Assembly: GCF_057098645.1 (NCBI RefSeq)
Contig: NZ_JBXSPU010000002.1
DNA from: a plasmid
DNA length: 64,000 nt
Direction: 5' to 3' (one strand)
Part shown: positions 1 to 6,000 of the stretch, piece by piece
Numbering within the stretch: position 1 is the stretch's first letter
Layout: every line of letters starts with the position of its first letter
Made by a program: the position numbers

Positions 1-3000
1 CCATATAAATATTATTAAATGCATTAGCGCTATTTAATACGACAATGCCATTGCCAGTTTTCAGATTATTACCTTGAGAAACATTAACATTCAGCGTACC
101 TGCACCAATTTTATGCAGGTTATCACCCGCAACCCCTTTCACATTCCAGTCAACTGTAGTATTTTCACCAATATCCAGCCCGGCACCTTTGAAGGTTTTA
201 TTATTACCAGTGACTGTGTAATGATGCCCGGAATCAAAAATGAGACCTCCAGAGCCAATGTTTACGTCATTGTCGAAATTAATACTTCCACCACCACTAA
301 AACTAAGATCTTTATAGTTATTATTAATTTTTTCAAGTTTAGTTGCGTTGCCATTTAATGTATACCTATCACTATTAAGTGATAATGTGTTATCATTTAT
401 CTGGATATTCTGAGTAAATATATTTTTTAGATTATTAACCGTATTGTTATCATACTGGTTTAATATTGACCAAACATCTTTACCTGAAGATGCTATCCCG
501 TATAGAGTACCCAGCATCACCCATTCTTTTTTTATATTATCATAGAGATAAAAACCGGAACCACTGTCCCCACCGGTAGTTTCATTATAAAAAGGAGTTG
601 TGTTATTATATGGTCTTTTGTTATCCCAGTTTAACTGAAACATTGATGCACTTAACAGAAGGGGATTATACGACTGTTCTGTGTTATACGAAGCACCATT
701 CTGAACGACTGAAGTAACGCCGGCTCCAACCCTGAAACCAACGATTTTTTTTTCGCCATTGATATCCACACCATAACGCTCAAGAGCATCATGGCTATTG
801 AGAGAGAAGTCTACAGAATTTTTTACACCTGAAGTTTCAACAACAAACTTATCAAGTCGGGTTACTGCAAAATCCCCCTTTGTCATCCTGTCTACATATT
901 TATATGAGCTTTGTCCCCAATTTTGAGTGCTTACTGCATGATGAACTGTTCCGTTATGAGTGGCAGTGACACTATATGCTCCACCAATAGATGTGGTTGC
1001 TCCTTTATTTGATGCTGGCGAGAAATCAGGAATTGGAACTTTTGGGAAATTAAACGACTGACCATTCTTGAGTTGAATTGATACATCGGTTGCTCCTGCT
1101 TTAAATACCCCCTTATTTTGTGCAAGGTCTAAATAATCTCTAGCCCATACATTATTAATATTTAGTTGAGCGGACTGTGCGGTGCTAAAAAAAACACCAC
1201 ACAGTGATAAATTTAATAATGTCAAAATACTGCTGCGGACTGTTTTCTTAATGACTCTGGATGCCAGTTCGGATACTACAATAAGTCCACCGGTTACATG
1301 ACTGTATTTTAATGAGTAAATTTTATTCATGGTTTTGTATATGGCGTTTTCATCACCAGCCTCAAGATCCATTTCGAAGCAATTGTGATGAAAACAGCTC
1401 TGTTATTTATAAATAAAGCTCTCAGCCATAAGAGCCATACACCAATACCAATACCCCATGAAAAACAAAAAATCAACCAGACAAACAGAATGAAAACAAA
1501 AAATAAATCATTTGGTTTTATTCTTTTTATTAAAAACATAAAGTAATGAGAGGTATTCAATGATGCCAGTGTCTGCGATACAGTAAGGACGCTCAAAATT
1601 GGTGTTTGGATCTCCTAACGTTAATATAATCAGTGTGCCTGCTCTAAATAGCTGTGCCGAATACCGCTACACTTTTACCAGCCCATGTTTACCACCGGGG
1701 AATGGGCTCACGGTTTCCATAAAATAATGAACCTTTTTCAGCTGTTCGCCACCGCTGTAGGAACCCGCGAGTCGAGTCAGCCGGAGAGAATTTCACTCCC
1801 TGGCTGCTCATGGAACCGTACGTGACACTCTCGCGTCATACGGCTCTTGATCACTCATTCGATGCACGTAGTAAATACCAGTGGACAAATAGCTTCGGAT
1901 ACTCCTTCCTTACCCGTCAGCTTTCGCTGAGCCTTCCGGTTCGAAAGTCTGTATTTAGACAGCATCCACTTGAGCAGACGTGACTGCATTGCACTCCACA
2001 GTCGATAGTTGAAATTTCTGGACCAGAACTTTCCGTAGTACCCGATCCAGCCTCTCACTATCGCATTGTAGCGCCTCGCAAAATCCAGCAAGCGCTCAGC
2101 TGTTGAGCGATGTATACGCCACTTCTTGATTGTTTCTGTTATTTTGCGCATTGCTGCATTTGACGCACCCGGCATGCATTTTCGGTACAGTTCGCCTTTG
2201 AAATTCTTCAGCGTACGCACTTTGAAGTCATATCCGAGAAAGGTGAAACTCGTTGCGACGTTTCTCCTTTTAAACGTGTCAATGTAGGCGATATTCGTTT
2301 TCCCTGCATTCAGGGCCAGCCCGACTTCCGAGAAGCGCTCCGATAACCTGTTCTTCAGCCTTGTTGCATCACTCATTCGTGAACAATGTACTACAATATC
2401 ATCAGCGTACCTCTCAAACGGTACCCCCCGATATTCTCTTTCCATCCACAAATCAAATGCATAGTGAAGGAACAAGTTAGCAAGTAGCGGACTAATGACC
2501 CCGTCCTGCGGAGTGCCTCGTGTTCGGGTTATTAATTCTCCATTTTCACAACTCTGCATTGGCGCTTCCATCCAGCGTCGACAGTACAGGATGACCCATT
2601 TAGGCATCCCGTGGTGTTCCAGTGCTTTGAGCACCAGATCATGTCTCACATGGTCGAAAAACGCACTGATGTCCACTTCCAGTATCCAGCTATAACGCCA
2701 GCACCGGATGGCACATTGCTTCAGAGCGTCATGAGCTGATTTGCTTGGTCGGTAACCATATGAATCAGCATGGAAAATCGGGGCAAGCTTTTCTTCCATG
2801 AAAAGTTTTATCGCTCCCTGAGCAATTCGATCGGATACTGTTGGGAGCCCCAGAATGCGCTCCTTGCCATTCGACTTCGGGATCCGTTTTTCCAGCACTG
2901 GTGGCGGAAACCATGTTCCCGAACATAGCCGGTTCCAGATCTTGTATAGATTGCCATCACGTTGCTGGTCGAACATTTTCAAAGTCTGTCCGTTGCATCC

Positions 3001-6000
3001 GGGGGCTCCCTTGTTGCGACGCACATCCAGATATGATGCCCAGACCAGTGCTTTTGGTATTTCAAATGATTTTCGTTGCATCGGTTACGTCATCCCCTTT
3101 TGGGTTGTGTCTTCTGCAATGAATGTGATCCCCATCCCTTCTCTCCAGACCCATTACAGATTTTTCATCACTACTACGAATGAGTCCGCCCCTGTTTCCC
3201 GATACGTGCCGGAAACAGGTTCTCACGTTCCCTGAGATGGTCTGGCTCGGGCTCCTGCTGCCTTCACACCGGATGCTGCGCAGTCAGTAAGCAGGTGACT
3301 TCTGCGCTTGTCAGGGGACGGCTCTACGGCCCCATTTTGACATCATCTAAGATTTCGATGCATCATCGGACAGTTTACTTTCGTTCAGCTTCCCGAACCC
3401 CACGTGACAGTCGATCTCTGCCTTTTCCCGAGTCGCTCACCACCTCATTCCTTAGAATGAAGCAGCACCGGGTCGTTTGGTCAGTGCTCCTGTAAACCCT
3501 GACCGGAGGGCCCACCTCCACCCACCTCAGAGCATGGATAACTTATGCTGCAATTTTCATATTGTTGCCATAATCCAGTCCCATTCACGTTGTGAGAGCT
3601 TCTCAGCACCAACAGAGAGCAGAACTGTATCAATGCTTTTGCGGGTCAACATAAAGGGATGGGGCGTGCGGCAACAACAGGACTAACGGGGCCGGTTTTC
3701 AATTTGCAGCCGCCAGGCTGCCGTGGTTCCTTAGGGCGGTGCCCATATTACGAGATAAGATCAAGCAATGAGTTAAGTTATAACAGGGGCCTGAATATAT
3801 AGGGGGACAATATCTTGAAAAATATCAGTAAAATTTTAAAAAAAACATGCAAGTATTGATTTTTACAGAGTGGCAATAAAAAATTAATAGAAAACAAACG
3901 CGCATGAAGGTGGTTAATGCTTACATCTAAAAAAGAAATGCAGTGTTCTAAAAATAAACAAGAGGATAATTTAACGTTATTGTTAACCAATTACATTTCA
4001 TATCAGAATATAGTTATATTTACGGGGGGAATCAGTTTAAGATAAGAAACAAGAAAGAATTCACCGAATACACAACAGGACCAAAATCATTGTTTTTTTT
4101 GGCAAAAAATACTCGCTGGGACATGGAAGTTGTCGGAATCGATAATAGTAATCCGTACAGGAAAATTATAATTGATGATGCATTAATTAAGTTGCTGCAT
4201 TCAATATCATCTGATGACTCTTGTTATGTAAAAAAAATATATTTACCGCGGACCTTAATGAAACGCAATTGAATATAGTTTACAATATAATTGAAGATAC
4301 AAAACACTCAGGTAACAACAAAAAGCATTTAAGATATTGTATTTATTATCTTTTTTAATAATCATAATGATATAGTTAATGTCATCCTTAGTGCTTCATC
4401 TACGAGCATCGTAGACAGGGTTATAAAAGTAGTTGAGTTGGATATATCCAAAAACTGGAAACTAGGCGATGTCAGTAGTTCAATGTTTATGAGTGACTCT
4501 TGTCTGAGAAAACAATTAAGCAAAGAGAACTTAACCTTTAAAAAAATCATGTTAGATATAAAAATGAAACATGCTTCTTTATTTTTAAGAACTACTGACA
4601 AAAACATAGACGAAATATCTTGCTTGGTTGGTTTTAATTCCACGTCATATTTTATTAAGGTATTTAAGGAATATTACAACACAACACCAAAAAAATATAA
4701 TGGCATTTATTCTATTACACAAAGCACATTGCCATAATTTTTTAGAGATATTTTGAATCTTATTTGCAATGAGCACTCGAAATGAAGAACAATTTGAGAG
4801 AAGAGAAAGAAGTCGTTCTTGATGGATGTATAAATGTATTGTCATTACCTTCAGAATGGAAAGCAATTACACCTAAAAAAATAATGTCACATCGGAGATA
4901 ATAGTGTTTTTCATTCCCCCCAAGGCTTCTTATCACATTATATTAAAATATGATAACACAAAACATTGCGAATTATTTTTTTCAGACCACATCACCGGCG
5001 AACAAGATGTTATATATTCACAAAGTGCTTTTTTCTCACATGTGATTAATCATATAATAGCTTTAGTTGATGTTCTTAATAAGAAAAGTTACGCAAGCAA
5101 TGTTATAAAATTTTTGATAACGATGGAAGGAGGCGGTGATATTCTTTCTGAATCAAAAAGAGCACCATAGTTTATCAAGTAAAAAATGACACATACACTA
5201 CTATAAATAAAGGTAATTATGGAAATAAGAGATAAAAAGGCGAAGTACTTGGAAGAAAAAGGGTTTTATAGACGAGCTGCAGATCGCTGGGCAGAGATAA
5301 TGGTACATTTATCTAGTGACGCTGAGAGAAAATTGGCAGCTCAAAAGTGTGCATTCTGCATTAATAAATCTCTACGTAATAATCTGCAAGCAGATAACTA
5401 TAGCGACATAAAACAAGGAGTTTATAAAGCATATAAGAAAATGGGGCTTGTAAATGAAAAAATATTTAGAAGCTACAAGGAAAATTAAATTATAACGTAG
5501 ATTGAGTCTAAATAACTGTTCGGAATAGTAGATCTCTCAGGGGGATCTCAGTCCGGTTTATGCTAAATAACTGCTCCTAATACCGCTACACTTTAGCCAG
5601 CCCATGTCCCCGACCGGGGAATGGGCTGACGGTATGTGCACCGTAACTGGCGCTGTTCTTCAACTGTGGTGGCTGAAGAACGACTAAGAGGTGAAAGTTC
5701 TCCACACACCCGGTGAGGGGAAGTGTTAGCGGAAGGCAAGGGTGTTCATCGCGAGGTGAAATCTGAAGGAAGCCGGATGCAAAATGCTGGCCTGACGAAC
5801 AGGAAGCGGTTAAGGCGGTGCAGCGGGGTAAGGTGGTATACATCACCAAAGCCTGATACTCACACGGAACGCTGTGACGTAGAGCCGACAGGCATAAGCA
5901 GGAAAGTCGCGCGAATTACCCCGGGAGATCTGCCGTCCTGCCAGTGTGCTACCGGCGTCGTAAGGCGCAGGGATGGGGCGGCAGAAGTCAGCCGACGCCG

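Follow-up and report, generated by a model that had tools for sequence, protein, structure and literature searches.

A probable E.c.I3 group II intron remnant joined to an orphan IS1294-like end upstream of perA on an EAF-type virulence plasmid

The prototype of the class D group II introns, RmInt1 of Sinorhizobium meliloti, is an active, endonuclease-less intron that homes into the transposase gene of an insertion sequence (IS), ISRm2011-2. Introns of the RmInt1 type probably move when the intron reverse-splices into the single-stranded DNA of replication forks. In enterobacteria, the intron E.c.I3 has IS679 as its specific target, and fragments of it have been reported on virulence plasmids of E. 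coli E24377A and of Shigella (Leclercq and Cordaux 2012; PMC3522654). A second kind of mobile element that bears on the present case is the rolling-circle IS of the IS91 family with an HUH/Y2 transposase, represented by IS1294 and IS1294b. Here we analyse a 64,000-nucleotide stretch of plasmid DNA (NCBI RefSeq assembly GCF_057098645.1, contig NZ_JBXSPU010000002.1; hereafter "the window", with positions counted from its first letter), in which a minus-strand group II intron, which we identify as a probable broken copy of E.c.I3, abuts one end of an IS1294-like element. The window is an EPEC adherence factor (EAF)-type IncF virulence plasmid, the region in question is 100% identical to E. coli plasmid pCAU16175_2, and the genes perA, perB and perC adjoin the junction locus.

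Identity and extent of the intron

Rfam models recognise the intron on the minus strand. Domains V and VI lie at 1771-1848 (RF00029, 54.2 bits, gathering score 40, over the full model), and a segment of domains I-IV lies at 3403-3519 (D1D4-2, RF01999, 91.9 bits, E = 2e-17). Domain VI carries a bulged branch-point A near 1777, 6-7 nt before the intron 3' end, and the last intron base is 1771 (…CTCGAC), which is the same as the published 3' end of E.c.I3. A search for the GUGYG 5' splice-site consensus at 3556-3730 returned none, and we therefore turned to a comparison with other copies, which exposed a truncation at the 5' end. The reference copy, E.c.I3-2b of E. coli 536 (NC_008253, 4007952-4009775; coordinates from the supplement of PMC3522654), was retrieved and aligned; this interval is 1824 nt long, starts with GTGTG, ends with CTCGAC and lies within an IS66 tnpC pseudogene. 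Window 3573 to 1743 is 98.25% identical to it; the alignment opens at reference intron nt 20 and runs through the 3' splice site into the next 28 nt. The intron itself occupies 1771-3573 (minus strand) as nt 20-1824 of the 1824-nt element. Intron nt 1-19, the GUGUG 5' splice site included, and the entire 5' exon are absent. IS91-family DNA stands where the first 19 nt should be, and domain I is therefore incomplete. This mapping by alignment to a known intron was the check proposed in an earlier note on this DNA, which had placed the intron at 1770-3720; the 3' end so given was essentially right, but the 5' end was about 147 nt too far out, the interval 3574-3729 being the IS91-family fragment itself.

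The intron protein is encoded at 1855-3081 (minus strand; 408 aa), in domain IV and between the two segments that Rfam recognises. Pfam finds in it RVT_1 (residues 67-285) and GIIM (311-385) only, that is, the reverse transcriptase (RT) and maturase (X) regions, and the NCBI group II RT/maturase model TIGR04416 matches end to end over residues 11-376 (376.9 bits; cutoff 300). There was no match to an HNH or D/En domain after GIIM, where only about 23-25 residues remain, and the stop codon, 6 nt ahead of domain V, leaves too little sequence for one. The closest solved structures in the PDB are those of endonuclease-less intron RTs of 427-428 aa, including the GsI-IIC RT. The earlier note was thus correct in describing a group II intron whose protein has RT and maturase regions and lacks HNH, an absence that is normal for class D, the class to which Table S2 of PMC3522654 assigns the E.c.I3 open reading frame and from which we take the label. 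Compared with the reference, whose protein has 410 aa, the window copy lacks 2 nt (reference nt 1679-1680, which would fall between window 1915 and 1914), and this deletion shifts the frame of the last ~21 residues, so that the conserved YPKLFVHW tail is lost (…LVRKEYPKLFVHWYLLRASNE in the E.c.I3 reference; …GKEGVSEAICPLVFTTCIE in the window copy). In addition, the substitutions D30N and G193D hit conserved RT motifs. Because domain I has lost its first 19 nt and with them the 5' splice site, the protein C-terminus is frameshifted and RT motifs are substituted, the window copy is presumably unable to splice or move.

The sequence that follows the intron identifies its native target. Related copies, that of E. 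coli 536 among them, lie in an IS66-family (IS679-type) transposase gene between ...AACTGGCTCT and TCGCGGGTTCCGAC...; full-length relatives interrupt its reading frame, their 5' exon ends ...AACTGGCT(C/G)T and the intron begins GTGTGTCACG. In three such copies (L002, L003 and L004) the order is ...GGCCGGAAAAACTGGCT(C/G)T, then the intron GTGTGTCACGAAGGAGTAC TTATGGCAAC... ...GGCTGACTCGAC, then the 3' exon TCGCGGGTTCCGACAGCGGTGGCGAACATGCGGCG.... The window retains 28 nt of this 3' exon, from an IS66-family (IS679-type) transposase gene, at 1743-1770 (minus strand; TCGCGGGTTCCTACAGCGGTGGCGAACA), and the 5' exon is deleted. The same 28 nt stand 3' of the intron in L002, L004, a further copy designated L005, and E. 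coli 536, where they run on as the IS66 transposase frame. A complementarity scan on a full-length copy yielded a candidate exon-binding site 1 (EBS1; AGAGCCG; window 3319-3325, minus strand), which could pair with TGGCTCT, the 7 nt at the very end of the IS679-type 5' exon. For EBS2, exon positions -8 to -13 had no convincing complement of 5 nt or longer upstream of this candidate. BLAST matches starting at query positions 428, 437 and 445 were considered as distinct 5' exons and rejected; the spread of start points is accounted for by local divergence of L004 and by a deletion that L005 acquired independently.

Downstream, the 3' exon remnant meets a fragment of an IS630-family transposase gene (1644-1746; 93-95% identity to annotated IS630-family transposase genes). 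At this joint the window has 186 nt fewer than plasmid L003 and shows AACA microhomology, indicating that the 3' joint is a further deletion; the IS630-family fragment is linked to the intron through deletions only. About 10 copies share the downstream IS630-family fragment; in L003, which is one of them, the intron 5' end and 5' exon are complete, which implies that the lineage formerly carried a complete intron.

More than 1000 enterobacterial records carry this intron at ~97% identity. The comparisons above lead us to regard window 1771-3573 as E.c.I3, the known endonuclease-less class D intron, in the form of a dead remnant, with a probability of about 0.9. Domains V and VI and the RT/maturase reading frame are present; it is the missing GUGYG 5' splice site and the incomplete domain I that make it a remnant rather than a complete intron. 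It shares with E.c.I3 the 3' splice site, the 3' exon and an RT/maturase protein without endonuclease, and differs in the loss of nt 1-19 and of the 5' exon, in the frameshifted protein tail and the D30N and G193D substitutions, and in a host IS cut to 28 nt. RmInt1, of the same class according to the literature table, is likewise endonuclease-less and specific for an IS transposase gene, but it is a distinct intron, has another target and is active, whereas the window copy appears dead. The E.c.I3 fragments of E24377A and Shigella are, like the window copy, inactivated and situated on large virulence plasmids amid IS debris. L005 is such an inactivated copy, and its plasmid also encodes the Shigella-type type III secretion system effector IpaH4.5.

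The joint with an orphan IS1294-like end

To interpret the DNA on the other side of the joint, we used as reference an intact IS1294-like IS91-family element within the window (20836-22523, plus strand, 1688 bp), whose transposase gene (21153-22352, plus strand; 399 aa) has the Pfam domains Y2_Tnp and Zn_Tnp_IS91. Its left end, at 20836 and upstream of the transposase gene, starts GAACCACGGCAGCCTGGCGGCTGC and holds a palindrome; its right end reads …TTTCCTATACGT at 22523 and is followed by GAAC. Across three intact copies (that of the window and two from other plasmids) the right ends are flanked by GAAC or CAAG. This flank identifies the right end as oriIS, while the palindrome and the position ahead of the transposase gene identify the left end as terIS, in agreement with the description of IS1294-type ends in PMC13181058. 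The piece next to the intron thus belongs to the terIS side. The intact element resembles IS1294 and IS1294b in its transposase domains, in GAAC (=GTTC) at terIS and in GAAC/CAAG by oriIS, whereas the piece beside the intron stops ~198 nt into the element from its terIS end, at ~95% identity and with a 42-nt deletion.

Aligned with the three intact copies, one from the window and two from other plasmids, this piece lies at 3574-3729 (minus strand). Window 3573-3729 matches 21034-20836 in inverted orientation (E = 6e-44), bearing out the inverted homology reported in the earlier note. The overall identity of 75% is due to a single 42-nt gap and is otherwise ~95%; the gap is a clean internal deletion when compared to all intact copies examined (lost sequence CGCAGAATATGTATGCTCTGAGGACCTGTTTTATTAAGGACT). 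The fragment spans IS nt 1 to ~198 and includes the GAAC (=GTTC) cleavage tetranucleotide and a GCAGCC/GGCTGC palindrome. Neither a transposase gene nor oriIS is present, the Y2/HUH transposase being found in the 20836-22523 copy, and with terIS and palindrome only the fragment is an orphan end, not a functional element. The possibility that it acts as a terminator for the intact IS was rejected, given its orientation opposite to that of the 20836-22523 element.

Intron homology and IS91-family homology meet at base 3573 with a 1-nt overlap (a shared T). Intact elements read …GGGACTGGAT GAAAATGCTC… into the transposase region, whereas the window reads …GGGACTGGAT TATGGCAAC…, the latter being intron nt 20/21 onward. 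The earlier note had held that the 5' end of the intron coincides with the point at which IS91-family homology breaks off. The two homologies do meet there, but base 3573 is not the true intron 5' end, as the first 19 nt are missing, and neither is it the IS terminus, since comparison with the intact copy places the break ~198 nt inside the IS. With both partners broken internally, the junction is not a retrohoming site. It very probably arose by an illegitimate secondary deletion that brought together an IS1294-like element already resident there and an IS679::E.c.I3 close by. Its distribution is narrow: PLSDB has the exact junction in only 9 plasmids, and it is present in 6 complete E. coli genomes, but more than 1000 records carry the intron or the IS separately. 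The breakpoint, intron nt 20 to IS1294-like nt ~198, is confined to a small group of perABC plasmids (the 9 PLSDB records), a difference from the other E.c.I3 fragments on virulence plasmids.

Order of events and alternative origins

Comparison with pMAR2, the classic EAF plasmid (L009), bears on the order of events. Its positions 3520-3560 show the same perA-upstream/terIS junction as window 3702-3775, identical in sequence, but of the IS end just 29 nt remain, after which an IS3 element begins. This shared junction indicates that the terIS end stood beside perA before the two lineages separated and that truncation followed in each of them independently; the junction may serve as a lineage marker for EAF-type plasmids.

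From these observations we infer the following sequence of events. The ribozyme and RT/maturase of an E.c.I3-family intron would have reverse-spliced into an IS679 transposase gene, guided by pairing between exon-binding and intron-binding sites. Endonuclease-less introns presumably draw the primer for cDNA synthesis from nascent DNA at replication forks, a route established for RmInt1. An ancestor of the EAF-type (perABC) plasmid would have carried the resulting IS679::E.c.I3 insertion, and rearrangements would then have stripped away nearly all of the host IS679. On the 3' side, deletions would have joined the 28-nt exon to the IS630-family fragment. Intron nt 20 would have become fused to IS1294-like nt ~198 by another deletion, on the 5' side and with 1-nt microhomology, at a time when the IS1294-like terIS end probably already stood upstream of perA. 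The state of the locus is known in kind: it is an ordinary broken copy and calls for no new insertion mechanism.

Some points weigh against this account. The name E.c.I3 comes from published coordinates and a target description and not from an intron-database reference file, and the inactivity of the copy is deduced from its missing 5' end. Moreover, no intermediate plasmid was found in which a complete IS1294-like element adjoins a complete IS679::E.c.I3, and for this reason the single deletion step is reconstructed from the end state.

Among the alternatives, the one that survives best, although it is still very improbable, is that the intron was truncated during its own mobility, through incomplete cDNA synthesis or template switching in retrohoming, with the cDNA end joined to nearby IS1294-like DNA. 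Such synthesis runs from the intron 3' end to the 5' end, so aborted events yield 5'-truncated copies, and the microhomology at the joint is merely 1 nt. However, this route needs IS679 and an IS1294-like element already adjacent and in the correct order; L003, with the same downstream IS630-family fragment, has a complete 5' end and 5' exon; and other copies, such as L005, bear unrelated 5' deletions that fit ordinary decay. Given L003, an abortive-cDNA origin is unnecessary and unlikely.

We give still less weight to the suggestion of the earlier note that the intron was captured together with the IS91-family terminus, taken here as movement by one-ended rolling-circle transposition of an IS91-family element. 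IS91 and IS1294 skip terIS in 1-14% of events and thereby mobilise neighbouring DNA (PMC13181058), and IS91-family ends adjoin virulence genes on this plasmid. One-ended transposition, however, takes the DNA outside terIS plus the whole IS, whereas the intron sits inside terIS, on the side opposite to the one that is mobilised, and occupies the place of the transposase gene and oriIS, neither of which is present. The side that could be captured is the perA upstream region, and the perA/terIS junction is older than the intron fusion, being shared with pMAR2. A similarly remote prospect is that the joint records a reverse-transcription intermediate of the intron meeting the single-stranded DNA of a rolling-circle IS, with an abortive cDNA ligated into IS1294-like DNA; if true, this would be a new route for recombination between two classes of mobile element. 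Direct retrohoming or retrotransposition of the intron into the IS91-family terminus, which the earlier note had also proposed, is the least credible origin: the two are adjacent and in the same orientation and rolling-circle elements make the single-stranded DNA that endonuclease-less introns favour, but the 3' exon is 28 nt of an IS66-family transposase gene and not IS1294, the intron begins at nt 20 and not at nt 1, the IS is broken ~198 nt inside and its joint sequence (…GGGACTGGAT) is not complementary to AGAGCC of the candidate EBS1, and no IS1294 sequence resumes beyond the other side of the intron.

The locus has little import beyond annotation. The intron is best labelled an E.c.I3 pseudo-intron that is frameshifted, truncated at its 5' end and followed by a remnant of IS679, and the adjoining piece, upstream of perA, an orphan terIS end of IS1294-like type. 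The locus adds one more case to the documented pattern in which enterobacterial group II introns are mostly inactivated fragments in mobile-element graveyards on virulence plasmids.

Neighbouring features of the window

For the per genes next to the joint (window ~4400-5500), the Prokaryotic Genome Annotation Pipeline (PGAP) marks perA and perB as frameshifted pseudogenes and perC as intact in the plasmid NZ_CP047380.1, which is 100% identical; the bundle-forming pilus (BFP) regulator locus on the window plasmid may be non-functional.

A second, different group II intron remnant lies at 5563-7388 (plus strand) and starts GTGCACCG at 5636. This start is 8 nt past a hairpin (AGCCCAT…ATGGGCT, 5598-5628) within an IS630-family fragment, as would be expected of an intron of class C, whose members insert after stem-loops. 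Rfam detects D1D4-3 and D1D4-1 at 5745-6033; an IS66 tnpA/tnpB piece (6106-6995) splits the intron, and a maturase-domain tail follows at 6914-7435. No domain V/VI was detected for this remnant (5636-7388). IS630-family fragments at 1644-1714 and 5563-5633 are 84.5% identical, in direct orientation, and each stands beside one intron remnant; the fragment at 5563-5633 may be the real target of the second intron.

Three IS91-family pieces were seen in the window, two of them fragments. Besides the orphan terIS end, a different IS91-family transposase fragment occupies 7424-8206 (minus strand), with a Y2_Tnp domain only and 85-88% identity to IS91 at 7602-8164. A recurrent association of introns with IS91-family elements was considered and rejected, as ~200 nt of other sequence separates the second intron remnant (5636-7388) from this transposase fragment (7602-8164). 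Near the intact IS1294-like element, an open reading frame for a ToxB/LifA-like protein of 3009 aa (11527-20556, plus strand) ends 280 nt before terIS; since it lies on the outer terIS side, one-ended transposition of the intact IS could mobilise it. The remaining Rfam matches at gathering level (23547-23663, 42619-42735, 25767-25856, 43723-43834 and 48775-48951) are typical of an IncF backbone and IS3-family elements, and comprise two ALIL frameshift pseudoknots, CopA, FinP with the traJ 5' untranslated region, and sok.

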